In this document: in pieces, positions 7,260 through 27,339 of the stretch
How positions within the stretch are numbered: the stretch's first letter is position 1
Layout of the letters: every line of letters starts with the position of its first letter
Origin: Candidatus Wolfebacteria bacterium GW2011_GWE2_44_13
Lineage (GTDB): Bacteria > Patescibacteriota > Minisyncoccia > UBA6257 > UBA9933
NCBI GenBank assembly: GCA_001000675.1
Contig: LCHW01000001.1
Location: forward strand, 68,013-132,012
DNA length: 64,000 bases
Direction: 5' to 3'
The notes under the pieces: generated by a model
What the model saw: only the letters and a program-made list of their open reading frames with translations
Database searches by the model: none
Told to the model about the DNA's origin: nothing
Made by a program: the position numbers and the translations under genes

Positions 7260-7299
7260 ATGCGAGATGCGAGATGAGAGGTAAGAGATGAGGAATTAA

Positions 7300-7330
7300 A
7301 AAGCGGTTCGCCTTGGCGAACCGCTTTTTG
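7300..7330 (+). terminator. Rho-independent terminator
   Basis: gcggttcgcc-ttg-gcgaaccgc followed by tttttg. Confidence 0.7.
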
Positions 7331-7352
7331 AGTATCCCCAAGTTTTTAGTAT

Positions 7353-7576
7353 TGTCATTCCGGCCTATGCCTGCCTGCCGGTAGGCAGGAGCCGGAATCT
7401 AGTATTCCGCATTGTCATCCTGAGCTTGTCGAAGGATCTGTAGTATGTAAATCATATTCCTCGATAAACTCGGGATGACAGCGCTTCCGGATTGTCATCC
7501 CGTACACAGTTTACGCTGGGTTTATCGAAGTGATACGGGATCCAGGACCCTGTCATTCCCGCGGAGGCGGGAATCC
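7353..7576. repeat. Tandem array of four different hairpin repeats, each led by TGTCAT (7353-7400, 7413-7438, 7493-7543, 7551-7576)
   Basis: Each unit is TGTCAT + stem + loop + complementary stem + C, with unrelated stem sequences. The last unit is the canonical tgtcattcccgcggaggcgggaatc. Confidence 0.7.
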
Positions 7577-7875
7577 ATCTTTTCGTACTTTTTCAAAAAA
7601 GTACGTCAAAAACTTCGAGCGCCGAAAATGGCGGAATAGGCTCGAAAATTTCTAACAAAACTACGAACTCGCTCCTGCGCACCGCTCAGACACCGCAGTT
7701 TTTGAGGAAATTTTTGTCGCCCATTTTGTCCGCCATTTTTACGGATGCTCGGGGGATGTGGGTAAAGAAGGTGGTTTTTGATCCGAAATATTCCCATGTT
7801 CGTAAAAGAGGGGACGCTCTTTCGGAGGGCGTTTTTACAGGCTCATGCGTAAAATACAAAAGAAGGGCACTTGAA
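7577..7875. repeat. Composite roughly 300-bp intergenic repeat element (variant b); related copies at 49267-49590 and elsewhere
   Basis: Shares long identical blocks with 49330-49590 (cgccgaaaatggcggaataggct...ctaacaaaactacgaactcgctcctgcgcaccgctcagaca) and the 3' end atccgaaatattcccatgttcgta with copies at 47.8, 51.2 and 54.3 kb. Confidence 0.7.
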
Positions 7876-11606: not shown

Positions 11607-11840
11607 ATGAAATTAATTCCTATTGGGCTTGTTGAGGGAGATATGATGGGTGAAATTATTAAAGGGCGCCTTATTGCCGAAGGTATAGAATGTGAAATTA
11701 CATCACCGAGCAGAGCACATGCTTCTTCGGGAGCTGCGACCAAGGATCCGTATAGTTCTGAAATCTATGTTGCGGAAGACAAGAAGGATGAAGCTGCACA
11801 ACTTATAAAAGAAATCGATTCGACTGCAGTAATTTATTAA
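11607..11840 (+). CDS. DUF2007-like small protein
   Basis: MKLIPIGLVEGDMMGEIIKGRLIAEGIECEI... fits the DUF2007 pattern (MKLVxV...EAxxxKxxLExEGI). Confidence 0.4.
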   Translation: MKLIPIGLVEGDMMGEIIKGRLIAEGIECEITSPSRAHASSGAATKDPYSSEIYVAEDKKDEAAQLIKEIDSTAVIY

Positions 11841-11852
11841 TATCCAGTATTT

Positions 11853-14399
11853 ATGGGCCCTAAATTACTTGATAAACGGAAAAAGAAAGCTCTTAAGATT
11901 ATTAAAAAGCTGAAAGAGCTTTTTCCGGTTTCAAAAATTGCACTAAACTATTCCAATAATTGGGAGCTGCTCGTTGCGGTTGAACTGTCGGCACAATGCA
12001 CTGACAAAAAAGTGAATGAAGTAACGGAGATATTGTTTAAAAAATATAAAACATTGAATGATTACGTGCATGCTGATCCGCGTGCATTTGAAAAAGATAT
12101 TCATGCGACGGGGTTTTATCATAATAAAACGAAAAATATTCTTGCTGCGGCGAAGATGGTGCAAGGCCAATTTGGAGGAGTTGTGCCAAAGACGATGCAG
12201 GAAATGTTAGAGATTCCCGGGGTAGCGCGCAAGACGGCTAATGTTGTACTGGGAAGCGCGTATGGAGTTGTAGAAGGAATCGCGGTTGATACACATGTGA
12301 TACGACTCACGCGATTGTTAGGGCTTACAAGCGAATCGAACCCCGTAAAAATAGAGCGCGATTTAATGGAGATTTTACCGAAAGAAGAGTGGCTCGAATT
12401 CACGTATCGGTTGATCGATTACGGAAGGGCCTATTGCCCTGCTCGAGCACAAAAACTCTCTATAATCATCCCCCTCTTTCTCTTTTTATTACTACCGAAT
12501 AGTTCTTTTGCGCAGCAGCAGGTGTATTCGTATGATGCAATCAATACGACAATTACTGTTAACGGCGATGCAACGTTTACGGTTGAAGAGCAGCAATTGT
12601 TTAATTACGAGGCAGGAACGTTTCATCAAGGGTGGCGCGCTATTTCGCTTGATAAAATAAGCCGCATTACGGATGTGCAGGTTATTGATGGTGCAACAGG
12701 ACAACCATTACAACACAGTAGCCAACGGCTTAATAAAACCGATCCTGATAGCTGGGGAAAATATACAGGGTATACACAGGATGGGAATGTAAACATCGAA
12801 TGGTATTACGACCTTGCTAATACAAAGCACTTGTGGGTATTGCGGTATGTGGTGCACGGCGGGTTCTCGTTCTACAAAGAAAACGATCGATTATATTGGA
12901 ACGCATTAACTGACTATAGCAGTCCTATTGGACTCGCTTCTGTAAAAGTCTTATTCCCTGAGAATGCAGATCTATCTTCTATGCAGTTTGATGCGTATCG
13001 AGAAGATAGTTATGCGATAAATAAAATAGTACAGGGGAATAATAGTATCTATTTTGAAACTCCGTTTATTCAGCCATACGAAGCGTTTACCATAGACATC
13101 GCTTTTCCAAAAGGAATCATAAGTGAATCTGCATTTTGGAAAGAATGGCTTACTGCGTATTGGGGATACGTAGGCTCTGGTATTGCCGCTGTGCTTGGGG
13201 TATTGTTTTCATTATTGTATTGGTATCGCACGGAGCGCTATGGAAAAGGACGTGGCGTTATTATTGCGCAGTACGAGCCGCCGCAGCAATTGCGCCCAGC
13301 GATGGCCGAAGTTTTAGTTAAGGAAAAGATTACGGAAAAAACATGGCCGGCAACAATTATTGACCTTGCGGTTAGAGGGTATATTGCAATCAAAGAAGAG
13401 CCTGAAGATAAACTCGTTGTATTTATACGCCTTTCTCTTGCTGTGATTTTAGTGGGTATCTTAGGAGCTATTAGCGTCCTGGTGCTTTTTGTCGACGTTC
13501 CGTTTGAAGGGAGAATGCCGTTGGTTCTATTTATAGCGGCCCCAATCCTTGTCCTTATTATTGCTTATCGGAAGGAGGGCAGTATTAAAAAATCATTTGC
13601 ACCGAAGAGTTACATTTTAGAAAAAGTAAAGGAATACGAAAACGATCCTAGCCTTGAAGAGTATGAAGTTAAATTCCTGCGGATTATTTTTTCTGGCATC
13701 GACCTAGTAACTAAAGAAAAGAAAAACCATTTTTCGTTAAAAGAGATAAAAAAGAGCTCCTCGTCTCAGAGAGAGCTTGCGCGATTACTTAACCTTCTAA
13801 AGGATGATTTGTATAAGGAGACTGATAAAGACACAAAGGCATTCGAAAAAGCGATACATAAGGAAAAATATTTTATGTTTGTGCTGTTCGGCCTCACCTT
13901 TTTCTTCGCAATGCTTAATAAGATACAAATCATTGATTTGGAAAATCAGCTGCATTTCCTCGTGTTTGTGTGCGCCATTGTTGTAGCTGTTGTGATTGCA
14001 TTTATAAAATTTGAATCGCGGCTTTCGCATGAAGGATATCTCTTAAAAGAAGATTGGCTTGGGTTTAAGCTGTATTTAGAAACGGCAGAAAAATATCGTA
14101 TGCAGAATCTTACGCCTGATATTTTTGAAAAATATCTTCCGTACGCAATGATATTTGGTATTGAAAAAAAATGGGCAAAATCGTTTGAAGGTATACATAT
14201 GCAACCTCCGAGTTGGTACGGATCTTCTTCTGTCGGTATGGCTGCGGGGATTTCTTCTGGCACATCTTTTTCCCCAGTTGGTTTTAGCTCAAGTTTCTCG
14301 TCTTCTTTTTCAAGTGCCTTTGCGTCGGCAGGGGGAGGCGGGGGAGGAGGTGGATCTGCGGGCGGAGGAGGTGGAGGCGGAGGAGGTGGTGCGAGCTAG
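11853..14399 (+). CDS. Apparent in-frame fusion: endonuclease III-like HhH-GPD domain (aa 1-215, no FeS loop) + DUF2207 membrane protein with a C-terminal poly-Gly/Ser tail
   Basis: N-terminus is Nth-like (LLVAVELSAQCTDKKVN, GVARKTANVVL, AVDTHV). After ...DYGRAYCPARAQK it runs straight into a signal-peptide-like LSIIIPLFLFLLLPNSSFAQQ. TM helices follow, then WLGFKLYLETAEKYRMQ...FEKYLPYAMIFG and a SSSFSSSFSSAFASAGGGGGGGGSAGGGGGGGGGGAS tail typical of DUF2207. Confidence 0.6.
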   Translation: MGPKLLDKRKKKALKIIKKLKELFPVSKIALNYSNNWELLVAVELSAQCTDKKVNEVTEILFKKYKTLNDYVHADPRAFEKDIHATGFYHNKTKNILAAAKMVQGQFGGVVPKTMQEMLEIPGVARKTANVVLGSAYGVVEGIAVDTHVIRLTRLLGLTSESNPVKIERDLMEILPKEEWLEFTYRLIDYGRAYCPARAQKLSIIIPLFLFLLLPNSSFAQQQVYSYDAINTTITVNGDATFTVEEQQLFNYEAGTFHQGWRAISLDKISRITDVQVIDGATGQPLQHSSQRLNKTDPDSWGKYTGYTQDGNVNIEWYYDLANTKHLWVLRYVVHGGFSFYKENDRLYWNALTDYSSPIGLASVKVLFPENADLSSMQFDAYREDSYAINKIVQGNNSIYFETPFIQPYEAFTIDIAFPKGIISESAFWKEWLTAYWGYVGSGIAAVLGVLFSLLYWYRTERYGKGRGVIIAQYEPPQQLRPAMAEVLVKEKITEKTWPATIIDLAVRGYIAIKEEPEDKLVVFIRLSLAVILVGILGAISVLVLFVDVPFEGRMPLVLFIAAPILVLIIAYRKEGSIKKSFAPKSYILEKVKEYENDPSLEEYEVKFLRIIFSGIDLVTKEKKNHFSLKEIKKSSSSQRELARLLNLLKDDLYKETDKDTKAFEKAIHKEKYFMFVLFGLTFFFAMLNKIQIIDLENQLHFLVFVCAIVVAVVIAFIKFESRLSHEGYLLKEDWLGFKLYLETAEKYRMQNLTPDIFEKYLPYAMIFGIEKKWAKSFEGIHMQPPSWYGSSSVGMAAGISSGTSFSPVGFSSSFSSSFSSAFASAGGGGGGGGSAGGGGGGGGGGAS

Positions 14400-14976: not shown

Positions 14977-15465
14977 ATGTATATGAAAATGAAGAAGGGG
15001 ATTATTTTATCAATATTGTTCTTGGGCTCGATGGTACTGTCTGTGGTTATTTTTCTATTACACCCGAGCTTCTTTTTAAGTCGCAAACAGATTGGCAATA
15101 GCGTTTCTTTCCCTGAGAAAAATATTACTGTTTCAGTTGAGCTTGCCGTAACGCCCTATCAATGGAGTAAGGGGCTTATGTTTCGCGAAGAACTTGCTTC
15201 GGGAGCGGGGATGCTCTTTGTATTTCCGAATGAAGAAATACGCTCGTTTTGGATGAAAAATACACTCATACCGCTTGATATCCTATTTATCAATGCAGAT
15301 AAAAAAATAGTGACTATGCATAAAGATGTGCAGCCATGCACAACGCTGCTTTGCCCACAGTATGCTTCGACGGTGAAGGCTATGTATGCGCTTGAGGTGA
15401 ATGCTGGGTTCGTTGATGCGCATGTTATACATGAAGGGGATACACTAGTGATCGCAAAGAAGTGA
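14977..15465 (+). CDS. DUF192 family protein (COG1430)
   Basis: VELAVTPYQWSKGLMFREEL..GMLFVFP.....FWMKNTLIPLDILFI..D.KIV matches the conserved DUF192 core. Confidence 0.75.
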   Translation: MYMKMKKGIILSILFLGSMVLSVVIFLLHPSFFLSRKQIGNSVSFPEKNITVSVELAVTPYQWSKGLMFREELASGAGMLFVFPNEEIRSFWMKNTLIPLDILFINADKKIVTMHKDVQPCTTLLCPQYASTVKAMYALEVNAGFVDAHVIHEGDTLVIAKK

Positions 15466-15505
15466 CAATCGACTTATTTTTAGATATGCTGCTACATACA
15501 AATAT

Positions 15506-16834
15506 ATGAAGATGCAAAAGAATAAAGTATTAATACAGGGAATGCATTGTGAATCCTGCGCAATTCGAATCGAGCAGGCGCTTAATGCTATTGAGGGGAT
15601 TGAGCAGGTTTCGGTCAATCGTGAGAAGGGCGAGGCAATTATCGGTTTTAACGGACCCGCTCCTACATACGAGCAAATAGAAAAGGCTATTTGCGACGTT
15701 GGCTATTCTATAGGAAGCGCAGAAGATGTGCCATGGATATCAAAAAGAGCTAAAGATTACACACACCTTCTTATTGGAGGGGTTATTTTAGGGGCCCTTT
15801 ATTTGATTGCGCGAATGACTGGACTGCTTGATTTACGCTTAGATACTACCGGAGAGAATATTTGGGTTGCGCTTCTCGTCGGACTTACTGCTGGAGTTTC
15901 TTCTTGTATGGCACTCATCGGAGGACTTACGCTTGGTTTTTCCGCTCGACATGCTGAGCTGCATCCGGAAGCAACTCCTTTGCAGAATTTTAGGCCACAT
16001 TTATTTTTTAATGCGGGGAGGCTTTTGGGATATGCCTTGTTAGGAGGTTTTATTGGGTTGATCGGTTCGGTTATTAGTATTTCGACAACGATACTTAATC
16101 TTATGGCATTTGCCGTGGGAATTGTTATGGTTTTCCTCGGATTAAAATTGATTGATATTTTTCCTATATTAAAAAATAAAACAATAACACTCCCAAAGGC
16201 ACTCTCAAATGTTTTGGGTCTGCGCGATAGTGATAAAGAATATAGTCATTCGGGCGCGTTTATCGCGGGGTCGTTAACATTCTTTTTACCGTGCGGCTTT
16301 ACACAAGCAATGCAGTTGTATGCTGTGAGCACGGGTGATTTTGGTAAAGGAGCTTTGGTGATGTTTTTGTTTGCTGTTGGTACGACGCCGGGGCTATTGG
16401 GTATCGGTTGGCTCTCTTCTGTGTTTAAGGGCTTGCGGGCGCGTATATTTTTTGCAACCGCTGGGCTTGTTGTTATTGTGATGGGGAGTATTACCATCGC
16501 GAATGCGCTTCCTCCGCTGCCATCGCTTACTCAGCAGCATCCTGCGGTCACTGAAAGTATTTTAAATGGAGGAGCGCAAGAAGTGCGTATGACGCAAGGA
16601 CCTAATGGATATAGCCCTAATCAATTTATACTCAAAAAAGGAGTTCCCGTACGATGGATTGTTGATTCGACCAGTCAGTATTCATGCGCTAATTATCTTG
16701 TCATGTCTGACTATGATGTAAGACAAACATTAAAGCCTGGAGAAAATGTAATCGAATTTACTCCGACAGAGGATGGCAAGATACCGTTTGCGTGCTCTAT
16801 GGGTATGTATCGAGGTACGTTCATCGTGCAGTAA
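15506..16834 (+). CDS. Heavy-metal-associated (HMA) domain + polytopic DsbD_2/CcdA-like membrane domain + C-terminal cupredoxin-like domain protein
   Basis: N-terminal GMHCESCAIRIEQAL is the MxCxxC HMA motif. The 6-8 TM region has Cys in TM segments (GVSSCMALIGG, FFLPCGFTQ). The C-terminal roughly 90 aa are beta-rich and end ...ACSMGMYRGTFIVQ. Confidence 0.55.
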   Translation: MKMQKNKVLIQGMHCESCAIRIEQALNAIEGIEQVSVNREKGEAIIGFNGPAPTYEQIEKAICDVGYSIGSAEDVPWISKRAKDYTHLLIGGVILGALYLIARMTGLLDLRLDTTGENIWVALLVGLTAGVSSCMALIGGLTLGFSARHAELHPEATPLQNFRPHLFFNAGRLLGYALLGGFIGLIGSVISISTTILNLMAFAVGIVMVFLGLKLIDIFPILKNKTITLPKALSNVLGLRDSDKEYSHSGAFIAGSLTFFLPCGFTQAMQLYAVSTGDFGKGALVMFLFAVGTTPGLLGIGWLSSVFKGLRARIFFATAGLVVIVMGSITIANALPPLPSLTQQHPAVTESILNGGAQEVRMTQGPNGYSPNQFILKKGVPVRWIVDSTSQYSCANYLVMSDYDVRQTLKPGENVIEFTPTEDGKIPFACSMGMYRGTFIVQ

Positions 16835-16908
16835 GGGGAATTTATTGACCCTCGATAGATTCCTCGCTAGTATGTACGTATACGGTACTCACTATAACGA
16901 ACAATAGT

Positions 16909-17454
16909 ATGGCAGGACATTCCCACGCAGCAAACGTAAAACATAAAAAGGCAGCAAACGATAAAAAACGGGCAAAAGTATTTTCCAAGCTTATTAAGGC
17001 TATCTCTATAGCTGCCCGTGACGAGGCAAATCCTCAGTTTAATCCAAGGCTTCGTACTGCTATTGATACTGCTGTCGAAAGCCAAGTACCAAAAGAAAAT
17101 ATCGATCGTGCAATTAAGAAAGCATCTGAGCCGGGGGAAGAACTTGAAGAACTTACAATGGAAGCCTATGGGCCAGAAGGTTCTGCGCTTATTATTACTG
17201 CGATTACCGATAATAAAAACAGAACAGTAAGTGAGGTGAAGTTGATTCTTAAAAAACAGGATGCTAAATGGGCTGACCCAGGGAGTGTGCTTTGGGCGTT
17301 TGAAAAAGATGGGGATGGATGGAACGCAAAGTTTCCGCAAGCTATTTCTGCAGAAGGAATGGAAAAATTAGAAACACTTATCGAGGCACTTGATGATCAT
17401 GATGATGTTGATGATATTTACGTGAATTGTAATATGTCAGAAGGGGAGGAGTGA
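16909..17454 (+). CDS. yebC: YebC/PmpR-family transcriptional regulator (short form)
   Basis: MAGHSHAANVKHKKAANDKKRAKVFSKLIKAI matches the YebC N-terminus [32 protein letters not shown]. 181 aa, shorter than canonical. Confidence 0.8.
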   Translation: MAGHSHAANVKHKKAANDKKRAKVFSKLIKAISIAARDEANPQFNPRLRTAIDTAVESQVPKENIDRAIKKASEPGEELEELTMEAYGPEGSALIITAITDNKNRTVSEVKLILKKQDAKWADPGSVLWAFEKDGDGWNAKFPQAISAEGMEKLETLIEALDDHDDVDDIYVNCNMSEGEE

Positions 17455-17504: not shown

Positions 17505-17981
17505 ATGAAAATATTAGGAATTGATCCAGGAACAACGCGTGCAGGGTATGGCGTTATAGAATCGCAAGGCAATTCTATAACATTGCTCGATAGTGGTCTA
17601 TTATCGGTAACTGCAAAAGAAACAGCGCAGCGCCTTGTTGAGCTTGCGAATTCATATCGTGAGCTACTTCGAAAAACAAATCCCGAACTCGTTGCTTTTG
17701 AAAAGTTATTTTTTGCGAAAAATGTAAAGACGGGCATGGACGTCGCCCAGGCGCGTGGAGTGCTGCTGCTCATCACTGCTGAAGCGGGAATACCATTTCT
17801 CGAATTGTCTCCTTCAGAAATTAAATTGCATATAGCGGGCAACGGCTCCGCTGACAAGCAAGCGGTAGCAACAATGGTAAAGCGTATTACGGGGCTTAAA
17901 ATTATCACTGGGCCTGACGACGTAACAGATGCCATCGCTATTGCTATTGTAGGGGCAAATTATTGGAAGTTCTCTGTTTAA
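17505..17981 (+). CDS. ruvC: Crossover junction endodeoxyribonuclease RuvC
   Basis: MKILGIDPGTTRAGYGVIE. Conserved yebC-ruvC synteny. Confidence 0.85.
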   Translation: MKILGIDPGTTRAGYGVIESQGNSITLLDSGLLSVTAKETAQRLVELANSYRELLRKTNPELVAFEKLFFAKNVKTGMDVAQARGVLLLITAEAGIPFLELSPSEIKLHIAGNGSADKQAVATMVKRITGLKIITGPDDVTDAIAIAIVGANYWKFSV

Positions 17982-18049
17982 TTTTGGGTGGTATATTTTA
18001 GTTGCAGCGAAGGCATATGCAGTTTTTTATTTATAGCAATAGTGTGATA

Positions 18050-18142
18050 AAATAAATGTGGTAAAATAAGTATCCTTACTCTAGTAGTCGCTTTTCTAAC
18101 GACACAGTAAATAGCCTCCTCGATTCGATGAGTGCCTAGTAA
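18050..18142 (+). pseudogene. Decayed remnant of a 19411-like small gene (3' end and intergenic leader), left by a tandem segmental duplication
   Basis: 18097-18176 aligns with 19696-19780, including ...aatagcctcctcgattcgatgagtgcctagtaa, which encodes NSLLDSMSA-stop, the C-terminus of the 19411 protein. The atgtggtaaaataa leader at 18054 matches 19392. Confidence 0.5.
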
Positions 18143-18154
18143 TTACTACACCCT

Positions 18155-19237
18155 ATGAAATCATCAAAATCACTCTCAATACTCCTATCCGTTATTGTTA
18201 CTACACTTACTGTTGTCTTTATTGTATCTGCGGACAATTGGACTCCACCTGCTGGAGAGCCTACGGCAAATAACACACCTGCGCCTATTCATGTTGGAGG
18301 GAATGCCCAATCTAAGTCAGGAGGGCTTATTGTGGGGGCTGGACTTTCTGCTTCGCAAAATGCATTGATTGTTCCTACGGGGAATGTGCTTGTGGGGACT
18401 ATTAATGGGCAAACGGCTCCTAATGGAGGGGGTGGAAATGTGGTTGCAAATGATTTCTATATTACAAGTATCGGTAAATGGGTGAGTCAGCTCTCTACTA
18501 ATGCACCTTTTTCGCAGGGAACACAGGTGTTTAATGAGACTGGAACATTCACTGTTCCTGAAGGCGTATACTCAGTTGAGGTAACCGCTTGGGGTGGAGG
18601 GGGAGGAGGGTTAGCTGCCTGCTTCGAAGCAGACCGGAATTCGCGTGACACGGGTGGGTCTGGAGGAGGTGGCGGGGCGTGGGCAAAAAAGGTTATCGCT
18701 GTTACGCCTACGGTTACCTATGATGTGGTAGTTGGCGGAGGAGGGGCAGGAGGAATAAGAGGAGGAAGTCGTGGTTGTGCCACAGGGGGGTCTGGGGGAA
18801 AAAGTTCATTCGGCGCTGATTTGCTCGTCGTAAAAGGAGGGGGTGCTGCGTCTTATGATGGGGGTCCAAACAATGACATCCTGAGGGGTGGAGCGGGAGG
18901 GGCTGCTACTGCCGGGGACGGCGAATCTTTGGCTGGAGAAAATGGAGGAGATGCAGATGGATTACCAGAGGGTGCGAGAGGCGGATCTTCTCCAAATGGA
19001 GGGGCTAAAACATCAAGGTCAACTGGCGTGGGGTCTTCAGGCTTTACTCCAGGAGGTGGCGGAGGTGGCGGAGCACTAACTGTTTTGACAGCCGGCTATT
19101 ATAATTCTGTAGAGAATGCCGATGTCCCTGGGTACTACAACCAAGAATGGGTTGCTCCTACATATACTTATCATGTAGGAGGCGCCGGTGCAAAAGGTAA
19201 GGTGATCGTTACTTGGGGCGGTGCAGTAGCACCGTAG
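18155..19237 (+). CDS. Secreted Gly-rich protein, paralog A of the NWTPP/NNTPAPINVG N-terminal-domain family
   Basis: Signal peptide with AxA cleavage (VSA/DNW). The mature N-terminus DNWTPPAGEPTANNTPAPIHVGGNAQSKSGGLIVGAGL...ALIVPTGNV is shared with 19760 and 24430. The rest is Gly-rich (GGGGG runs). Confidence 0.55.
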   Translation: MKSSKSLSILLSVIVTTLTVVFIVSADNWTPPAGEPTANNTPAPIHVGGNAQSKSGGLIVGAGLSASQNALIVPTGNVLVGTINGQTAPNGGGGNVVANDFYITSIGKWVSQLSTNAPFSQGTQVFNETGTFTVPEGVYSVEVTAWGGGGGGLAACFEADRNSRDTGGSGGGGGAWAKKVIAVTPTVTYDVVVGGGGAGGIRGGSRGCATGGSGGKSSFGADLLVVKGGGAASYDGGPNNDILRGGAGGAATAGDGESLAGENGGDADGLPEGARGGSSPNGGAKTSRSTGVGSSGFTPGGGGGGGALTVLTAGYYNSVENADVPGYYNQEWVAPTYTYHVGGAGAKGKVIVTWGGAVAP

Positions 19238-19351
19238 GAAACGGTGTTTCTAATGAAGCCGGTGGCTTTAAAAAAGGAATCGGCGGAAAAGTTGCAAATG
19301 GAAAAGTTATTTTGCAATGGTAACTAGCTAGAAGCGTTTTACTGCAAAACA

Positions 19352-19382
19352 AAAACACCAGCGCTCGCTGGTGTTTTTGTTT
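19352..19382 (+). terminator. Rho-independent terminator (family aacaccagcgc-N-cgctggtgtt, repeated three times in the island)
   Basis: Hairpin followed by tttttgttt. Near-identical copies at 20719 and 23390. Confidence 0.7.
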
Positions 19383-19410
19383 ATGCTCTCAATGTGGTAA
19401 AATAATTGCA

Positions 19411-19746
19411 ATGAGTTTTAAGGAAATAATAATAAAATATCGTATTGCTATCGTGATTGTAATAGTCGCGGTTACGCTTGCCATTTTTGGTATATATGTG
19501 ATGACGGGACGTAACGTTGCGCCGCCTATAGAAGAGCCCCCTCAATCTTCTGAACCCATTATTCTTACTCCTGAATTAACAAAAGTATTAATCAAGGAGA
19601 TGAGTGTTCCTACGACAACAGAGGTTCAAATGCCTAAAAATAAAATAGAGGAAGTTAAAAAAGAAATGTCAGTTGATCCTAAGAAAACTCCGCCAGTTTC
19701 TAGCGACACAATAAATAGCTTGCTCGATTCGATGAGTGCAAAGTAA
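19411..19746 (+). CDS. Small membrane-anchored hypothetical protein
   Basis: 111 aa with an N-terminal TM and a Pro/Glu-rich tail. A remnant paralog lies upstream at about 18.05-18.14 kb. Confidence 0.45.
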   Translation: MSFKEIIIKYRIAIVIVIVAVTLAIFGIYVMTGRNVAPPIEEPPQSSEPIILTPELTKVLIKEMSVPTTTEVQMPKNKIEEVKKEMSVDPKKTPPVSSDTINSLLDSMSAK

Positions 19747-19759
19747 TTATCACATCCTT

Positions 19760-20704
19760 ATGAAATCACCAAAACTACTTTCTCTTATATTATCAATTAT
19801 CATCACTACACTTGTAGTGTTTCTCGGTGTTTCTGCTGATTGGGCAGGTCCTGTAAGTGAACCACCAGATGGAAACGTAGCGGCTCCGATTAATATTGGA
19901 GGCAATGCACAATCAAAGTCTGGAGGTCTTATTGTTGGAGCAGGACTTACTGCTGCACAGACTGCACTTATTGTTCCTGCGGGGAATGTAGTCATCGGAA
20001 CGCTTACCCCAATAAATTCTGCTCCTAATGGAGCGGGAGGTAATGCGAGCGTAAACGATCTCTATATCCGCAGTATCGGTAAATGGGCTTCGCAGCTTTC
20101 TGTGGGTCCAGTTGCAGGGCCAGCTGCCTATTGCGGAGGAGTTGCATATGATGCGGAAAATGCGTATTGTCAAAACGACATTATTTATAACGTAGGGGAT
20201 TGGATTCCGCTCGACAACGACTCGAGCAACCAAACAGATCCAGCTGGAAATTGGTCAACACTTATAACAAAACAAGTAACATTTCCTGTTAAAACCTGTA
20301 AGCTAAAAGCACAGGCCGGCTTTAATGATGGAGGATTCGTTGCTGTTTTTGATGGCGCAGCTCGACTTGCCCTTTGGGAAAAGAATTTTACGATTGAAAA
20401 TATGGAAGCAGGTATCGGGCGGTTTTCTGTAAAAGATCAAAATAACCAAGCTTGCGGAGTTTCCGGTTTTGTTGACGGAGGGGACTATACACAGACTTTC
20501 TATACTTCCACTGCGCCCTATGTTGAGGGAGGGGTTTTGAAATGGTGCGGTTATGTTGCTTGGAGGAGTTCGGGAAGCGCTAATACGAATGAGTATACTG
20601 TTAGCAAAGCAAAGGGGACGACGGCAACTGTGTATTCGACGCATGCATTGGGGGATAGTGGAGATAATCATTCATACACGCTTTACGGCAAATATTGCAA
20701 TTAA
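19760..20704 (+). CDS. Secreted protein, paralog B of the conserved N-terminal-domain family
   Basis: Start MKSPKLLSLILSII by homology to MKSSKSLSILLSVI of paralog A. Mature N-terminus DWAGPVSEPPDGNVAAPINIGGNAQSKSGGLIVGAGLTAAQTALIVPAGNV. Unrelated Cys-containing C-terminal domain. Confidence 0.55.
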   Translation: MKSPKLLSLILSIIITTLVVFLGVSADWAGPVSEPPDGNVAAPINIGGNAQSKSGGLIVGAGLTAAQTALIVPAGNVVIGTLTPINSAPNGAGGNASVNDLYIRSIGKWASQLSVGPVAGPAAYCGGVAYDAENAYCQNDIIYNVGDWIPLDNDSSNQTDPAGNWSTLITKQVTFPVKTCKLKAQAGFNDGGFVAVFDGAARLALWEKNFTIENMEAGIGRFSVKDQNNQACGVSGFVDGGDYTQTFYTSTAPYVEGGVLKWCGYVAWRSSGSANTNEYTVSKAKGTTATVYSTHALGDSGDNHSYTLYGKYCN

Positions 20705-20718
20705 AGCGAGCTATAGCA

Positions 20719-20746
20719 AAACACCAGCGCGCGCTGGTGTTTTTTA
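20719..20746 (+). terminator. Rho-independent terminator (same family)
   Basis: aacaccagcgcgcgctggtgtt followed by ttttttat. Confidence 0.7.
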
Positions 20747-20948
20747 TCCGATTCGATTGCCATTACTATTGTAGGGGCAAATGGTGCAAAACTACGTGCG
20801 GTTCCATAAAAAGAGCCTAGAGCTCTTTTTATGAGGGGCGATTGTATATTCTACTCGGAAGATTTAAAATTAACAGTATTAACTAAAACATATAGCATCC
20901 TGTCGATTTAGCCACTAATTATAGGCTAAGTGCTCGATACCTCAAAAA

Positions 20949-21398
20949 ATGAAAAAAAATATAATCTTATCTATAGTAGGAGTACTCGTTGTAATCGGTA
21001 GCTTTCTTTTGGGAGCGTATATGATGACTCGATCGGCAGAAAATGCCCCAGCTGCTTCCGAGGAGACTGTAAATCAGAAATTTTCTGAAGAACAAATAAG
21101 TTCAATTACGGCGTTGACTCCGGGTAATATTGTATCCGGTCAGGTGATTACGATAGGAAGTAATGAATTAGATATTTCTGTCGCGATAGAAAATGTGTTT
21201 GATGAGTTAGCAGACCCACAGATGACCACGGTAAAAGTGCCTGTTAATAAACAGGATGTGATTAGTAGGCTCGTGAATGATCCAGAAGCCTTCATTTTTA
21301 AGCAAACCATCATGCCGCTTAGCGAAATAAAAATCGGGGACTATGCAACGGTGAAGGTACTTGATGACAAAAAAGTAATTTTTGTAACCTCACAATAA
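20949..21398 (+). CDS. Membrane-anchored hypothetical protein
   Basis: 149 aa, N-terminal TM. The stop overlaps the next start (ATGA). Confidence 0.4.
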   Translation: MKKNIILSIVGVLVVIGSFLLGAYMMTRSAENAPAASEETVNQKFSEEQISSITALTPGNIVSGQVITIGSNELDISVAIENVFDELADPQMTTVKVPVNKQDVISRLVNDPEAFIFKQTIMPLSEIKIGDYATVKVLDDKKVIFVTSQ

Positions 21399-23281
21399 TG
21401 AAAAAATATACTATATCATTTCTATTAGTAGCTCTGACGGTTACGATGATACCCGTAACGTCTTTTGCTGCTATTGATTGGTTCCAGAGTCCTTCTCTTG
21501 TGTACCCGACCAGGCCCGGCCATTTTATTAATAGCGATTTATTAAAAGATAAGGCGAGCTTGCCGTTAGACACACCGCTAACAACTACGCGCGTGGTTAA
21601 TTTACTGAATAGTATACCGAGTACGAATGGAGTTGATGGGGTAACTCCTATTATATCGAAGATGGTAGGTGTTTCCTCTGCAACTCCTGATGCGGTATCG
21701 TTTTTTCGAAAAACATATGGATTTAAAAATAACCAAGCGGCGTATTTGCCTATAGAGGCTACGGATACAGAGGGAATTGCTTATTTATACCAACCACCTT
21801 TGCCAGCTCCAAAGGCTGATACTACGGAGCTTATTACGGCAACCTCATCTATTAGGGTTAACGGGAAGGACAAAGTTGTTACAAAGTATTATCTTAAGCA
21901 GACGTTTATTAAAAACGATTTAACTAAAATAGTTAAAAAGGAAAAGAATCTTTTTATTAAATATAAGGACGAAAATAATGTAGATATTATTGATTATCGC
22001 AATATCTTACAAGAAATAACCTCGTTTACCTATACACGGTATACGCCTGTTACGGAGATACTTAAAGGAGATAAAACCCCCACTCCAACATGCGTAGTGA
22101 CGGGGTATGATGATAGTGGGGAGATCACGGAATGTACTAGCCCTGATGTAGTGGCATACGTCGATGGGAAAACATATGCCGGTTATGCAGTGACTGGTTT
22201 GGTGTGGAAGCGTAATGCGGATAAAAAAGCGCTTGACCCGTTGCTTCCTTTTGGAATCCCCTTTGGGATTACGGAAGCATTTTCCCCTACGTACTCCACG
22301 GTTGCCTCTCCGCAGGCTCCTGAAATGACCGCATCAATTACGAGACCGCTTAATAGTGATATCATATGGCGGGGAAATCCTAATTGCGTTACAGATACAG
22401 ATAAAGATTGGAATAAAACAACTGTTACTATCGCCTGCACTATGCGTGCAATAGCTGCCGATGGGCGTATTGGGTCTGGTAATTTCTATCAGAGAGAAAG
22501 CAGTGGGGGCTTTCTGGGTGGATGGATGGGGGATATATTCTCTCTCTCGTTTACGGCAGGGCTAGCAGAAATCGCAGGGCTGCCTCCATTTGGTGGATTT
22601 GTGACTGGGGACTTCTTTTCTAACGACCCCTTTATACAACTAGCAGGTATCCCAAGGGCACTGGGGACAGTCCAATCCTTGTATAATGTTGGAGGGGTGC
22701 CTTGGACATGGACGTGGACTAGCCGGTTTAATGTGCAGGAGGATAAGGATATTCCACAAGTCACACTTCGAGCTAGGGGACAATTGTCAGATCTTGATGT
22801 TTGGGTGCCAAATAATGCGGTTGTGTTAGATTGGACATCGCAGAATGTTAAACCAACGTGTAACGTTTCCGGAAATTGGTCTGGAACGAGAGCGAATAAG
22901 GGTACGCAGTTATTAGGAAAATTGCCGAGAACAGGTGCTAAGCCAAATGAGGCAAAGCAGTATACCTATACAATAAGTTGTGTAGATATAAATTCAACCG
23001 CAACCGTTTCGTCGAGTGTTTCGGTCAATGTTTGGCCGGCTACCCTCAAGCTTCCTATACCAACTAATGGTTCTTGTGGGGATTCGCATAAAAAAGTTAT
23101 TGCTTCTACTCCCGTTTCTGGTCTTTGTGTGGTTGGGTCTGCCTCGTCTGTAACTGGTACTGACCCGTGGACTTGGACTTGTTATGGGGCAGATGGAGGC
23201 TCGGACGCTTCTTGTGAGGCTTCATCATCTAATTCGACTTCTACTAAAGTGCGTATTATCGAGACAAACCCTGGAGAATAA
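21398..23281 (+). CDS. Large secreted hypothetical protein with a C-terminal 4-Cys domain ending ...KVRIIETNPGE
   Basis: 627 aa with a signal peptide (SFA/AIDW). The C-terminal tail motif is shared with the 23479 protein. Confidence 0.45.
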   Translation: MKKYTISFLLVALTVTMIPVTSFAAIDWFQSPSLVYPTRPGHFINSDLLKDKASLPLDTPLTTTRVVNLLNSIPSTNGVDGVTPIISKMVGVSSATPDAVSFFRKTYGFKNNQAAYLPIEATDTEGIAYLYQPPLPAPKADTTELITATSSIRVNGKDKVVTKYYLKQTFIKNDLTKIVKKEKNLFIKYKDENNVDIIDYRNILQEITSFTYTRYTPVTEILKGDKTPTPTCVVTGYDDSGEITECTSPDVVAYVDGKTYAGYAVTGLVWKRNADKKALDPLLPFGIPFGITEAFSPTYSTVASPQAPEMTASITRPLNSDIIWRGNPNCVTDTDKDWNKTTVTIACTMRAIAADGRIGSGNFYQRESSGGFLGGWMGDIFSLSFTAGLAEIAGLPPFGGFVTGDFFSNDPFIQLAGIPRALGTVQSLYNVGGVPWTWTWTSRFNVQEDKDIPQVTLRARGQLSDLDVWVPNNAVVLDWTSQNVKPTCNVSGNWSGTRANKGTQLLGKLPRTGAKPNEAKQYTYTISCVDINSTATVSSSVSVNVWPATLKLPIPTNGSCGDSHKKVIASTPVSGLCVVGSASSVTGTDPWTWTCYGADGGSDASCEASSSNSTSTKVRIIETNPGE

Positions 23282-23389
23282 AAATAATTAATCTTGTGTT
23301 CCGTAAGGTGGGGTAGTCATAGATATTTTGTTCCTATGTAGTGTGTTGTATCTAGTTTGGTCGATAGAAGTCATAAAATTAAAAACAAA

Positions 23390-23423
23390 CCTTAAAACAC
23401 CGGCGCATGCTGGTGTTTTAAGG
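23390..23423 (+). terminator. Rho-independent terminator (same family)
   Basis: ccttaaaacaccggcgcatgctggtgttttaagg. Confidence 0.65.
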
Positions 23424-23478
23424 TTGAGGGGTTTTATGGTAGAATAAATGTAGTAATCATATATAGTATTTAATCATT

Positions 23479-24387
23479 ATGAAAAAAATTGATATCCGAA
23501 AAAACAGTTATCTTTTGTTCGGATTTGCTTGTGGTGTCACGCTTTTTGCGGCATACATAATAGCATTTGGTGGTTTTGAAGCACGTAACGATGGGCCTCT
23601 TGCTTCTGCACAAGAAGCCCCGTTTGTAGTTCCTCCAACCGACCCCTCTGTGCGTGGATGGATGTGGTCTTCAAATATCGGATGGATTAGCTTTGATTGT
23701 CGAGATGGAGGACGGTGCGGTACCGGAGCTGGTCAGGCTAATTATGCGTCGCCTATCAATCTGACTACGGGGGTAGTGTCGGGATATGCATGGTCTTCGA
23801 ATATTGGATGGATTAAAATGAACCCAACGGGAGCGTATCCTTCTGCGCCTAACCATGGATTGCAGGCGGACATAAATACGGGGGTTTTATCTGGTTGGAT
23901 GCGTGCCTGTAGCGGCGCGGCAAATGCTAACTGTACTGGAGGAGCTGTCGATGGATGGGACGGGTGGATTAAAGTGTATGATGCAAAAATTTCTAGTGGA
24001 GGGTACATTACGAACACCGTAGGTACTAGTGGGGGATGGATGTGGGGCGGCGATGTTGTCGGTTGGGTAAAAACCTCTGACATTATTGGAACTATTGGGA
24101 CTTCGTTCCCTGTTGCAGATTGTGCATTTAGAGCAACGCCTCCTTCAATCATGCCCCCACAATCAGTTAAATTGGAGTGGATTTGTAATGATGCTACGCA
24201 GCAAAATTCGTGCAGCATCGATAATGGTGGTGGATCTAATTTACCAACATCGGGAAACGTTGTTATGCGCCCAACTGAAACAACTCCTTACGTATTAACA
24301 TGCCAAGGATTTGGTGGTCCAGTGATAAAGAATTTGCCAGTTACTATAACAAAAACAAAGATTATTGAAGTGCGTCCTGGGCAGTAA
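23479..24387 (+). CDS. Membrane-anchored protein with SSNIGWI / GW-containing repeats and a C-terminal Cys domain ending ...KIIEVRPGQ
   Basis: Repeats GWMWSSNIGWISFDC / GYAWSSNIGWIKMNP / GWDGWIKVYD / GWMWGGDVVGWVKTSD. C-terminal tail similar to the 21398 protein. Confidence 0.45.
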   Translation: MKKIDIRKNSYLLFGFACGVTLFAAYIIAFGGFEARNDGPLASAQEAPFVVPPTDPSVRGWMWSSNIGWISFDCRDGGRCGTGAGQANYASPINLTTGVVSGYAWSSNIGWIKMNPTGAYPSAPNHGLQADINTGVLSGWMRACSGAANANCTGGAVDGWDGWIKVYDAKISSGGYITNTVGTSGGWMWGGDVVGWVKTSDIIGTIGTSFPVADCAFRATPPSIMPPQSVKLEWICNDATQQNSCSIDNGGGSNLPTSGNVVMRPTETTPYVLTCQGFGGPVIKNLPVTITKTKIIEVRPGQ

Positions 24388-24429: not shown

Positions 24430-25422
24430 ATGCATACATCAAAATTTATTACGTATTTCATAGCAGTGGTCCTTACGGTCGGTATCGGTGCTGCGCTTGC
24501 TACTGCAGCAAATTGGACGCCACCTACTCAAGAGCCTCCGGCAAATAATACTCCTGCGCCAATTAATGTTGGGCCTACTGCTCTACAAACAATAGACGGC
24601 GCACTTACGGTGAAGGGGCTTATCGAAACAACAACAGCCTTAGGAGGTATTAAATTTCCCGACGGAACGATTCAAAAAACAGCTGCTGTTACAACAAATG
24701 TGGGCGGAGAGGGTTGCTATCCGATGGCCGGGAATAACTGTCTCGTAGGATATTATATGAGTGGTATTGCTACGTGCTGTCCCCTTGATGCAAATAAAGC
24801 ATTCACTCCGGGGGTTTGGTTCCTTAATAAGCTTGCCGTTTCTTATCCACGTGAACAAACGTATAACAATGTATGGTCTCCTAAGAAAACTGATTCGTTT
24901 GTCGCACAATATGCGATTAATAAAATTCGTATAAAGGGTTCCGCTGATGACGGTGGCTATTGTTACGCGTATTGGGGCACTGGACATGCACAAACAAGTC
25001 GTAATACTGGCGCAAGCGGATTGTTTACGGTAGATGGTAAATGGTATGGAGCTCCAAATGCGGGGCAATGGTTCAGCAACACTGTGAATGGTGCCTGTCC
25101 GCAAAGTTTAAATCCATATCCGGGCAGCCCTCATTTTACGAAGATTCCTGTGTGTGATAATGTCGACTGGGAAGGCTATTGCACGGACCCTGAGCAAGCC
25201 TACGGTTGTGGATTTACTCGCTGTCCGTTTGGAGCAAATACATTTGACGATACAGGAAATGCGAAAATATGCGCAACAAACTATGATTCTGGTAATATGA
25301 CGACGATTGTCGAAGATGTTGTTATCCCTGCTGGGGCAACGGTTACTTTGCAAGGGCGACATGCAAACGGGTGGCGACATGGCTATCTTAGCTGCGCACT
25401 TGATTTCCAATACACTCCTTAA
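24430..25422 (+). CDS. Secreted protein, paralog C of the conserved N-terminal-domain family, with a Cys-rich C-terminal domain
   Basis: Mature N-terminus ANWTPPTQEPPANNTPAPINVG matches paralog A almost residue for residue. About 16 Cys downstream. Confidence 0.55.
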   Translation: MHTSKFITYFIAVVLTVGIGAALATAANWTPPTQEPPANNTPAPINVGPTALQTIDGALTVKGLIETTTALGGIKFPDGTIQKTAAVTTNVGGEGCYPMAGNNCLVGYYMSGIATCCPLDANKAFTPGVWFLNKLAVSYPREQTYNNVWSPKKTDSFVAQYAINKIRIKGSADDGGYCYAYWGTGHAQTSRNTGASGLFTVDGKWYGAPNAGQWFSNTVNGACPQSLNPYPGSPHFTKIPVCDNVDWEGYCTDPEQAYGCGFTRCPFGANTFDDTGNAKICATNYDSGNMTTIVEDVVIPAGATVTLQGRHANGWRHGYLSCALDFQYTP

Positions 25423-25448
25423 TAATTAGTATTTTACTATATAACGAT

Positions 25449-25964
25449 ATGGAACAAAAATTAGTAAATAAAATTTTGATTGTCGGTGTTGTTTTGAGTT
25501 GCCTTGTTTCGATAGGATTAATTATATTTGTGCTGAGGGCATATCAAAAAGAGGCGACAGTGGTGGAAACAAAAGAAGATACTACGCCAATAACCACTCA
25601 AATTGTTGATTCGGGCCCAGTATCATTCGTTGGTTTTGTTGGCAAGCCTGTATCGACTACGGTGGGGCTGGATAACGGAAACAAGATAATCGAATTACGA
25701 GGACATACTACGCAAAATACAAATAAGGCGTATGAATCTGTTTTAGATACAGATATGATGACGCGTAGAATTATTATTAATCCAGATACGCAAGTACGCC
25801 GCATTACTCAAAAGAACCAAATACCAGAGGTTAATGGTATTGAATTTAATGAGCTTACTTCTGCCGTGACTACAGATGTGTACATCGCTTCATATGAGGC
25901 AAAAGAAGGGGAGGAAATAACGGAAACAACCCCAGCCCATTCTATTGTCATCTTTGCCAAGTAA
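25449..25964 (+). CDS. Membrane-anchored hypothetical protein
   Basis: 171 aa with an N-terminal TM helix. Confidence 0.4.
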   Translation: MEQKLVNKILIVGVVLSCLVSIGLIIFVLRAYQKEATVVETKEDTTPITTQIVDSGPVSFVGFVGKPVSTTVGLDNGNKIIELRGHTTQNTNKAYESVLDTDMMTRRIIINPDTQVRRITQKNQIPEVNGIEFNELTSAVTTDVYIASYEAKEGEEITETTPAHSIVIFAK

Positions 25965-25978
25965 GGACTTATAAAAGG

Positions 25979-26037
25979 TTGACTCTTCCACAGAGTGTGG
26001 TATAGTAGTTATAGAAATTCCGCACTTGTGCGGTTTT
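25979..26037 (+). promoter_or_regulatory. Promoter (TTGACT-16-TATAGT) followed by a leader hairpin-terminator (ccgcacttgtgcgg + TTTTT); possible attenuator upstream of nusA
   Basis: Hexamers at 25979-25984 and 26001-26006. Stem-loop 26020-26032 plus a U-run lies inside the predicted leader, before the nusA ATG at 26095. Confidence 0.4.
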
Positions 26038-26094: not shown

Positions 26095-27339
26095 ATGTTA
26101 GATTTAAAATCATTAAATTACGCAATTAAACAGATCTCCGAAGAGAAATCTCTTCCGGAGGAACAGATTTTGTCGGCCGTAGAGTCGGCAATCGCAGCTG
26201 CTTATAAAAAGGAGTACTGCGAACGAGGAGAAATAGTGCATGCAAAGATCGATACCAATAGCGGTCAATTTACGTTCTGGAAAACAAAGACCGTCGTTGA
26301 TGAATCAACGGTGCGCATAATTGAAGAGGAAGAAATTGTTGAACCTGAGCCAGGAGCTCCTGTGAAAAAAGAAGAAGTTGTTATTGAGGAGGAAGACGAA
26401 GATTTGCTCCCTCGTTACAATCCAGACCGACACATTTTAATCGATGAAGCTCGTGCAATAAAAAAGAATGCGGAATTAGGCGAAGAGCTTTCATTCCCGC
26501 TTGAAGAGCGACAAGATTTCGGTCGCATTGCTGCGCAGACTGCAAAGCAAGTTGTATTACAAAAAATTCGCGAAGCAGAACGTGATTCTGTGCGAAAAGA
26601 ATATCAAGGAAAAGAAGGTGAAATCGTAAGCGGTATTATCCAGCGTGTTGAACGAGGTAATACCTTTATTGACCTTGGTCGCGCGATGGGTGTTATGTTA
26701 TATAACGAAGTCATTCGCGGAGAACACTACAACATCGGAGAGCGCATGCGCTTTTACGTTGTTGCCGTGCAAGACGAAGAAGGCAAACGCCCTGGAATTA
26801 TCTTGTCTCGCTCACACCCTAAGTTTGTAGCAAAGTTGTTTGAGATCGAAGTTCCTGAAATTTTAGAAGGACTTGTTGAAATAAAATCAATTGCTCGTGA
26901 ACCGGGGAGCCGCACAAAGATGGCCGTACATAGCACAGAAGAAGGTATTGACCCGATTGGTGCATGTGTCGGACAGCGCGGAACGCGTGTCATGACCGTT
27001 ACTACGGAATTGGGAAATGAAAAGATTGATATTATTCAGTGGTATGAAGATCCTGCTCAGTTTATCGCTGCAGCACTTTCGCCCGCAAAGGTAACCCATG
27101 TCGAAATTCGTGATCGTCGTGAAGCAAAGGTACTTGTGCCAGAAGATCAGTTGAGCCTTGCTATTGGTAAGGATGGACAGAATGCGCGCCTTGCAGCTCG
27201 TTTGACGGGTTGGAAGATCGATATACGATCACAGGCACAGCCAGACGCCCCACAGGCCGGCGGTGTGTTTGGAAAATCAGAAGACGAAGAAGGTGTTGAT
27301 TTTGGAGGTACTGAACCAACTGTTTCTACTGAAGAATAA
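26095..27339 (+). CDS. nusA: Transcription termination/antitermination factor NusA
   Basis: N-terminal domain, S1, and two KH domains (GxxGxNxRLAARLTGWKIDI). There is an acidic insertion in the N-terminal domain. Confidence 0.85.
   Translation: MLDLKSLNYAIKQISEEKSLPEEQILSAVESAIAAAYKKEYCERGEIVHAKIDTNSGQFTFWKTKTVVDESTVRIIEEEEIVEPEPGAPVKKEEVVIEEEDEDLLPRYNPDRHILIDEARAIKKNAELGEELSFPLEERQDFGRIAAQTAKQVVLQKIREAERDSVRKEYQGKEGEIVSGIIQRVERGNTFIDLGRAMGVMLYNEVIRGEHYNIGERMRFYVVAVQDEEGKRPGIILSRSHPKFVAKLFEIEVPEILEGLVEIKSIAREPGSRTKMAVHSTEEGIDPIGACVGQRGTRVMTVTTELGNEKIDIIQWYEDPAQFIAAALSPAKVTHVEIRDRREAKVLVPEDQLSLAIGKDGQNARLAARLTGWKIDIRSQAQPDAPQAGGVFGKSEDEEGVDFGGTEPTVSTEE

Follow-up and report, generated by a model that had tools for sequence, protein, structure and literature searches.

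The 64-kb stretch of DNA analysed here (the window) belongs to Candidatus Wolfebacteria bacterium GW2011_GWE2_44_13, an uncultured bacterium of the Parcubacteria, within the candidate phyla radiation (CPR), known from a groundwater metagenome; exact matches to its RuvC protein lie on contigs of the Rifle aquifer data set. Between ruvC and nusA, the window carries two related genes for predicted secreted, fibre-like proteins, called paralogs A and B. The pair is probably the result of an old tandem duplication, within the ruvC-nusA island, of a two-gene cassette made of a promoter, a gene for a small membrane-anchored protein, a gene for a secreted fibre-like protein, and a terminator. The main comparison is with the sister species Candidatus Wolfebacteria GW2011_GWC2_39_22 (L006). 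The elements of the two units are the following, by window position.

18041..18069, + strand: two back-to-back extended -10 promoter-like motifs (TGTGATAAAAT, TGTGGTAAAAT) upstream of paralog A, kept in the sister species
18070..18139, + strand: small-gene remnant, whose last 15 codons (18095-18139) read SNDTVNSLLDSMSA-stop; the remnant is 85% identical to 19697-19758
18155..19237, + strand: paralog A, 360 residues, with signal peptide, N-terminal module (residues 28-114) and Gly_rich_2 head (residues 129-354)
19347..19382: putative palindromic terminator T1, with 17-bp arms, 100% complementary, and then a T-run
19391..19405, + strand: promoter-like motif of unit 2, 15/15 identical to 18055-18069
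19411..19746, + strand: small membrane gene, 111 residues
19760..20704, + strand: paralog B, 314 residues, with signal peptide, N-terminal module (residues 27-114) and cysteine-containing, predicted beta-sandwich head (residues 120-314)
20718..20744: putative palindromic terminator T2, which doubles as the left edge of a lineage-specific indel

Collinearity of the two units

When the window is aligned with itself by BLASTN, positions 18093-18482 are collinear with 19697-20087 at 71.8% identity over 404 nt (E 2e-50). A repeat search recovers the same match in parts, namely 18093-18154/19697-19758 (85%), 18272-18404/19874-20006 (76%), and 18416-18496/20021-20101 (75%). This similarity is far longer than the 80 nt noted in an earlier, sequence-only reading of the locus; it spans the whole N-terminal domain of A and B and ends directly past the shared codons AGTATCGGTAAATGGG (S-I-G-K-W). 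Adjacent units also share their non-coding flanks, with the promoter motif identical at 15 of 15 positions, the leader at 85%, and the terminators at up to 96%. Between the units, collinearity begins with the promoter motif, takes in the leader and the whole N-terminal module of about 88 residues, and is found again at the terminator. The tandem duplication of a unit proposed in the sequence-only reading (small membrane gene, paralog with the N-terminal domain, and hairpin terminator) is supported, with a promoter-like motif as a further part of the unit, and every statement that this reading made about the sequence itself holds.

The leader match that had been placed at 18054 and 19392 is the 15-nt motif AATGTGGTAAAATAA, identical at 18055-18069 and 19391-19405; a third near-copy is present at 18041-18055. 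The sequence TGTGRTAAAATAA occurs at three sites in 64 kb, all of them at those places, where 0.42 would be expected by chance. The motif is a good extended -10 element (TGnTAAAAT), and similar motifs precede the gene of the SNIGWI (302-residue) type in L006 and in the more distant relative L094. These motifs presumably act as promoters. In unit 2, only about 6 nt lie between the end of the motif and the ATG of the small gene, whose message may therefore be leaderless.

The terminators described after three genes are likewise borne out. The palindromes AAAACACCAGCGC..GCGCTGGTGTTTT at 19352, 20718, and 23394 have 85-96% of their sequence in common and are confined to these sites within the 64 kb, and the pattern AACACCRGCGC-N-GCTGGTGTT matches only at 19354, 20720, and 23396 (expected number in 64 kb 0.00). 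The third of them, T3, does not belong to a further copy of the unit; it lies at the edge of another, separate indel.

The 111-residue protein of unit 2 consists of one N-terminal hydrophobic helix, a low-complexity stretch rich in Pro, Glu, and Lys, and the C-terminal sequence LLDSMSAK. Its gene ends in SSDTINSLLDSMSAK-stop, and the counterpart in front of paralog A ends in SNDTVNSLLDSMSA-stop, as had been pointed out before. Of this upstream copy only the last 15-24 codons are left: its frame is open from 18065 only, ATG, GTG, and TTG are all absent before the motif, and it is short by about 290 nt as compared to unit 2. One small-gene copy has indeed decayed. Among 5.8e9 clusters, the 111-residue protein matches only the identical entry of the source organism (UW32_C0001G0079) and one ortholog. 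A weak homolog of 114 residues (E 1e-4) is encoded in L094 at 11625-11969, upstream of a single fibre gene; its build is the same, and its last residues are LFDSMSVQ. In spite of its fast evolution, the small membrane protein keeps this C-terminal sequence across lineages (LLDSMSAK or LFDSMSVQ), and the third codon positions of the motif differ in the DNA.

Age of the duplication and the site in related genomes

The sequence-only reading had taken the duplication to be recent and caught in progress, that is, unit 2 would have been copied from unit 1 a short time ago, and the decay of the small-gene copy would still be under way. The near-identical bookends (promoter motif, leader, and terminators) are in favour of this reading, whereas the divergence of the coding sequences contradicts it. 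By the Nei-Gojobori method, applied to the window and L006, the N-terminal domains of A and B are separated by a synonymous divergence (dS) of 1.1-1.4, which is saturated, and a nonsynonymous divergence (dN) of about 0.26, within either genome or across; the core genes yebC, ruvC, and nusA differ between the two species by a dS of 0.06-0.12. Furthermore, L006 holds both units, as a 360-residue gene with no small gene in front, followed by a 111-residue and then a 318-residue gene, and its ruvC-to-A spacer is almost identical to that of the window, truncated small gene included. Both events, duplication and small-gene loss, therefore took place long before the split from L006. The head domains are unrelated, and no polymorphism is found inside the island among assemblies, since all 49 differences between the window and the ENA assembly L001 fall within 12000-12500. 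Hence, a recent duplication deserves hardly any credence, and the near-identity of the non-coding bookends is presumably due to functional constraint or gene conversion, not to youth. From the earlier interpretation, the words "recent" and "in progress" have to be dropped, and what stands is the tandem duplication, the decayed small gene, and the diversification of the paralogs, which bear signal peptides and are presumably surface proteins.

The same arrangement occurs in several independent assemblies of the source organism and in three assemblies of the sister species, and it is therefore not an assembly artefact. Further relatives were chosen by RuvC retrieval and their contigs inspected (L091, L093, and L094). 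In L091 (RuvC 72% identical), the nusA promoter and leader hairpin follow about 25 nt after ruvC, and the site is empty. L093 (74%) has an 8-kb island with other genes at the site. In L094 (77%), the island starts with a SNIGWI protein, the 114-residue small membrane protein, and one 401-residue protein with an A/B-type N-terminal module; a 166-residue membrane protein, a spermine-synthase-like gene, a second fibre-type gene, and a 177-residue membrane protein make up the rest. The single small gene and single A/B-type fibre gene of L094 indicate that "small gene plus fibre gene" is the ancestral unit, which was doubled in the lineage of the window and L006. The ancestral single-copy state that had been sought in related genomes is thus represented by L094, together with the empty site of L091. 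A RuvC scan of species-representative genomes, which was dominated by a generic N-terminal peptide pattern, gave distant RuvCs only (<=53% identity) and nothing on the island.

A neighbour-joining tree of the N-terminal modules groups A with B and leaves L094 and P0007 outside this pair. Tandem genes of this family are also seen on unrelated metagenome contigs: L096 (1468-4366) has three and L097 (54-1964) two, with different cysteine-rich heads and no small gene between. The A-B pattern is therefore characteristic of the family. As a duplication, the present case is ordinary: it is old, fixed, and typical of a widespread, uncurated CPR protein family.

Exchange of heads and island segments

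Paralogs A, B, and C (the last one further downstream in the island) start with a positively charged hydrophobic leader of Sec type, which ends in a signal-peptidase-like site (VSA|D, ATA|A). In A and B the leader is followed by the shared module of about 88 residues, W..P...PP..N..AP(I/L)N.GG.AQSKSGGLIVG...GN...G....APNG.GGN...ND.YI.SIGKW.SQL, which is 65% identical between them; paralog C shares only its first 45 residues or so after the signal peptide. No Pfam or NCBIfam model exists for the module, or for B or C. A hidden Markov model of the module (E 5e-48 against paralog A) was scored on 1.84 billion cluster representatives with a cut-off of E <= 1e-3, and it retrieved 976 clusters; in the matches covering its start, the module begins at about residue 25-40, right behind the hydrophobic leader. 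The same profile found four loci in a metagenome scan. Among 150 members, the recognisable partner domains are of fibre or adhesin type, namely Peptidase_S74 (six), Gly_rich_2 (five), Gp53-like_C (two), dockerin (two), and one each of collagen, type-IV collagen C4, YadA_head, and T4 gp36.

The heads of A and B have nothing in common. Residues 129-354 of A match Pfam PF21722, Gly_rich_2, over model positions 3-225 of 226 (54.5 bits against a cut-off of 24.3), a match limited to A and lacking in B and C; the head of A also matches the phage tail-fibre PHROGs 863 and 6202. Gly_rich_2 may be linked to the polyglycine sandwich of phage gp38. The AlphaFold2 model of A has a mean predicted local distance difference test (pLDDT) of 55, too poor to justify a fold search. 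The head of B is modelled as a confident beta-sandwich (pLDDT 85-95), whose best fold matches, all of them weak, include TNF/C1q folds, the fibre tip of Bdellovibrio Bd2133, and phage fibres. It has four detectable relatives besides itself, and P0005 carries it behind an entirely different N-terminus. A Peptidase_S74 (PF13884) C-terminal chaperone domain is absent from A, B, and C. Because the C-terminal domains of A and B belong to unrelated folds or families, the heads have been swapped, and a gradual divergence of one copy does not account for them. The joint of the exchange likely lies directly after the S-I-G-K-W codons.

Between the stop codon of A and T1 (19240-19323), the -1 frame reads GNGVSNEAGGFKKGIGGKVANGKVILQW-stop. 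This peptide is like the extreme C-termini of Gly_rich_2 proteins, if only at a blastp-short E of 0.4-0.8, and in L006 it is degraded. This may be the leftover 3' end of an older, replaced head domain. A programmed -1 frameshift at the end of A was considered and rejected, as residue 354 already completes the Pfam domain and L006 has only a degraded version of the frame downstream.

The matches of the A head to tail-fibre PHROGs, the Peptidase_S74, Gp53-like_C, and T4 gp36 domains among family members, and the weak fold matches to phage fibres could also be taken to mean that the locus is a degraded prophage or phage-derived tail-fibre module, coding for phage receptor-binding proteins and not for cellular surface proteins. 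Against this, Pfam and PHROGs show no capsid, terminase, portal, or integrase among the eight island proteins, and in the family members that contain its start the module stands directly behind an N-terminal hydrophobic leader, a feature that virion proteins do not have. No relative of the module was detected in 2.9 million viral contigs, and the island is situated between housekeeping genes and is stable across species. A phage origin of this kind is very unlikely.

The A-B pair sits in a hypervariable island of about 8 kb, which extends from the ruvC stop codon to the nusA promoter. The genes and elements of the island outside the two units, with its borders, are as follows.

16909-17454: yebC, which borders ruvC; the yebC-ruvC order is kept in all relatives
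17505..17981, + strand: ruvC, left border of the variable island (Pfam RuvC E 7e-43)
20745..20833, + strand: relic of the ruvC 3' end, with 20 codons SDSIAITIVGANGAKLRAVP-stop (20745-20808) and its own hairpin (20805-20833)
20949-21398, + strand: 149-residue small membrane protein
21398-23281, + strand: 627-residue predicted secreted protein
23388-23425: putative terminator T3
23479-24387, + strand: 302-residue SNIGWI-repeat protein
24430-25422, + strand: paralog C, 330 residues
25449-25964, + strand: 171-residue small membrane protein
26095..27339, + strand: nusA, right border of the island

At 25979-26033, the nusA promoter (TTGAC-N16/17-TATAGT, with TG) and the leader hairpin CCGCACTTGTGCGG are kept in the empty-site genome L091 (10503-10560), and the right edge of the island is therefore fixed. 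Inside the island, the identity between the window and L006 is uneven. It is 96-100% from yebC through the N-terminal module of A, 84-93% in the head of A, 78-89% in the small gene and the N-terminal module of B, and 65-78% in the head of B. The corresponding dS values are 0.16 for A, 0.39 for the small gene, 0.89 for B, 0.50 for the 302-residue gene, 2.15 for paralog C, and 1.1 for the 171-residue gene. A synonymous divergence so far above that of the core genes means that alleles or segments were replaced and that positive selection alone is not the cause.

The alignment with L006 jumps from 20744 to 23392 of the window, and both ends map to a single L006 terminator. The 2.65-kb block in between (20745-23391), which opens with the ruvC relic and goes on with the 149-residue gene, the 627-residue gene, and T3 (20949..23425), is absent from L006 and has a terminator copy at each end. 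Whole cassettes are gained or lost at the terminator repeats. Homologs of the 627-residue protein were not found in a JGI metagenome scan.

Directly behind T2, the relic matches ruvC 17923-17960 at 31/38 nt over 20745-20782, with an exact core of 17 nt (blastn E 0.003), and its peptide resembles the RuvC tails of relatives (...GANHARLGVR, ...GASFAKLHAC). When a RuvC profile is compared with six-frame fragments of the window, the relic is the best non-self match, over the last 17 profile positions, with a non-significant E of 0.24; Pfam gave no match for the two short relic peptides, which are too short for it. We take the relic for a scar left where two versions of the island were joined, in one of which ruvC would have stood directly before the 149-residue gene; a genome with this order was not found, and either side may have been the incoming one.

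The palindromes and the relic bring to mind integron-like or integrase-driven cassettes, in which the hairpins would be recombination sites and the ruvC repeat an attachment-site duplication. Cassette-sized units each end in a similar palindrome, the indel is bounded exactly by two of them, and the direct repeat of 38 nt with its identical core does correspond to a repeated 3' end of ruvC. However, none of the eight island proteins has an integrase or recombinase domain (Pfam, NCBIfam, and PHROGs), and the locus is for this reason not classed as an integrative element or an integron. The hairpins, as perfect palindromes with an A-tract/stem/T-tract shape, look like typical bidirectional terminators and unlike the imperfect attC sites of integrons. 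They are not kept in the L094 island, which has other hairpins, and homologous recombination between repeats of 27 nt is enough for the indel. This explanation is extremely improbable.

The mosaic structure bears on another question, namely whether the duplication arose in situ. Recombination, homologous or illegitimate, could have joined two related cassettes from different lineages at an integration hot spot, in which case A and B would be alleles or xenologs and not paralogs that arose at this site. In keeping with this, the divergence from L006 rises from about 1% in the N-terminal domain of A to 11-35% in the small gene and B and is higher still further to the right, where paralog C exceeds a dS of 2, a foreign ruvC 3' relic marks the boundary of unit 2, and heads have been exchanged between unrelated N-termini. 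The N-terminal module of P0004, a protein of an unrelated contig, moreover, is as close to B as A is. On the other hand, the two units have in common their promoter motif, their terminator, and the 3' end of the small gene right before the fibre gene. The tree joins A and B as sisters and leaves out the single-copy gene of L094, and no donor lineage was found. A joining of two lineages is unlikely; given the thin separation of A and B from P0004, it is nevertheless kept as a live rival.

An old tandem duplication of a two-gene cassette remains the preferred reading, and several points weigh against it. The sisterhood of A and B is weak, since the module of P0004 is 67% identical to that of B, as compared to 65% between A and B. 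The role of the small protein is conjectural: its detectable homologs are almost nil, and other tandem arrays do without it. Promoter, terminator, secretion, trimerisation, and adhesion are all functions predicted from sequence features. In AlphaFold models the N-terminal module reaches a pLDDT of about 30, and its fold is unreadable; it may fold only in the oligomer, or the model may simply hold little information. Finally, the leader (85-95% identical) is less diverged than the neighbouring synonymous sites, which calls for gene conversion or constraint.

As regards this last point, the leader together with the small-gene tail shows 85% identity between the two units of the window, and in L006 its first 31 nt reach 94%, whereas adjoining synonymous sites differ at 59%. 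An RNA element in the leader was considered and dropped. The consensus fold of the four leaders contains only an invariant hairpin of 8 bp, with no covariation, and L094 uses different third positions for the same codons; in the whole window Rfam reports four tRNAs only and no RNA family at the locus. For these reasons, the likeness of the leaders is better, if tentatively, put down to coding constraint that lasted up to a late deletion, to gene conversion between the 5' ends of the tandem units, or to the two combined.

Proposed mechanism, known analogues, and other features

According to the proposed mechanism, the N-terminal module would serve as stalk or dock in a trimeric fibre, with the heads as its interchangeable binding tips. 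The repeated promoter and terminator bookends would supply the homology for unequal crossing-over, and after the duplication one head would have been replaced by recombination just 3' of the S-I-G-K-W codons. The small protein, with its membrane helix and conserved LLDSMS motif, could anchor or assemble the fibres. The N-terminal modules of A and B being alike, one small protein might serve both, and the second copy of its gene would then be dispensable and free to decay. With the fibre proteins, this probable episymbiont would attach itself to host cells.

The closest described analogue is the mosaic adhesive trimer (MAT) family of Bdellovibrio bacteriovorus, whose members resemble phage fibres, stand on the cell surface, and combine an N-terminal domain that is invariant with tips that are swapped; they fall into S74 and non-S74 subfamilies (Caulton et al. 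2024, PMC10769870). A and B likewise pair a conserved N-terminal domain with exchanged C-terminal tips, and the likeness is one of architecture. MAT proteins have about 1000 residues, as compared to 314-360 here, and their host is a proteobacterial predator, whereas the present proteins belong to an uncultured CPR bacterium and their trimeric state and surface location are predictions. We know of no MAT counterpart of the small membrane-protein partner.

A second analogy is offered by the exchange of phage tail fibres and receptor-binding proteins, including the glycine-rich tip adhesins, in which, as here, the N-terminal attachment part is conserved and the C-terminal binding domains are exchanged horizontally. 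In both cases a small accessory gene adjoins the fibre gene. Phage fibre chaperones are usually encoded downstream and are soluble; the accessory gene of this locus is upstream and its product is predicted to be membrane-anchored. Unlike phage fibres, A and B have signal peptides, and the setting of their genes is one of chromosomal housekeeping, with no phage genes.

Replacement-type flexible genomic islands, in which surface genes occupy fixed chromosomal sites, include O-antigen, capsule, and pilin loci as well as the flexible islands known from marine bacteria. The ruvC-nusA island resembles them in its fixed core-gene site, differing contents, dS far above that of the core, one empty site, and relics of flanking genes at block junctions. 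It differs from them in that it covers only 8 kb in a genome of about 0.6 Mb, carries cargo of fibre type and not glycosylation genes, and has no mobility genes.

CPR bacteria are thought to live attached to other cells, and the molecules by which they choose a host are largely unknown. In this regard, the locus is a compact candidate for CPR host-recognition proteins, as it combines an N-terminal module family of 976 clusters with swappable heads in a replaceable island. It is possible, if rather doubtful, that it represents an undescribed fibre-adhesin system of Wolfebacteria and many other CPR bacteria, in which the module W-x-x-P...PP..N..AP(I/L)N.G...Q.K.G.L, at the very start of the secreted proteins once the signal peptide is cleaved, would dock on the C-terminal LLDSMS motif of the small protein, cassettes running from promoter to terminator would be shuffled at ruvC-nusA, and the heads would set the range of host cells open to attachment. 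A literature search on surface fibres of Wolfebacteria and the CPR, on Gly_rich_2, and on hypervariable islands of Patescibacteria found nothing specific. The comparison set of empty site, single unit, duplicated unit, and unit with an extra block makes the order of events and the recombination joints testable.

Some other features of the island and of the window deserve mention. A fibre gene with a C-type head followed by a membrane protein of 166-177 residues, of the 171-residue family (blastp E 1e-9 to 1e-18), is a recurring pair; it is present in the window at 24430-25964, in L094 at 12003-13743 and 15497-17083, and in L093 at 6026-7605. A similar C-terminal tail, ...K(I/V)(I/R)I(I/R)E(V/T)xPG(Q/E)-stop, ends the SNIGWI-repeat proteins and the 627-residue protein. 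Examples are TKIIEVRPGQ, KVRIIETNPGE, and KVRIIEVPAGQ (window 23479-24387 and 21398-23281; L094 10610-11536; L093 3469-4299). This shared PG(Q/E) tail may be an undescribed C-terminal sorting or anchoring signal.

Outside the surface-protein island, the HMA/DsbD_2/cupredoxin gene at 15400-16800 is 61-80% identical to L006, whereas its flanks are mostly 87-100% identical; this segment is another replaced block. HhH-GPD and DUF2207 form one frame of 848 residues (11853-14399) in the window and two genes (211 + 663 residues) in L001. As this is where all the differences between the two assemblies are concentrated, the single or split frame is a strain or assembly difference.

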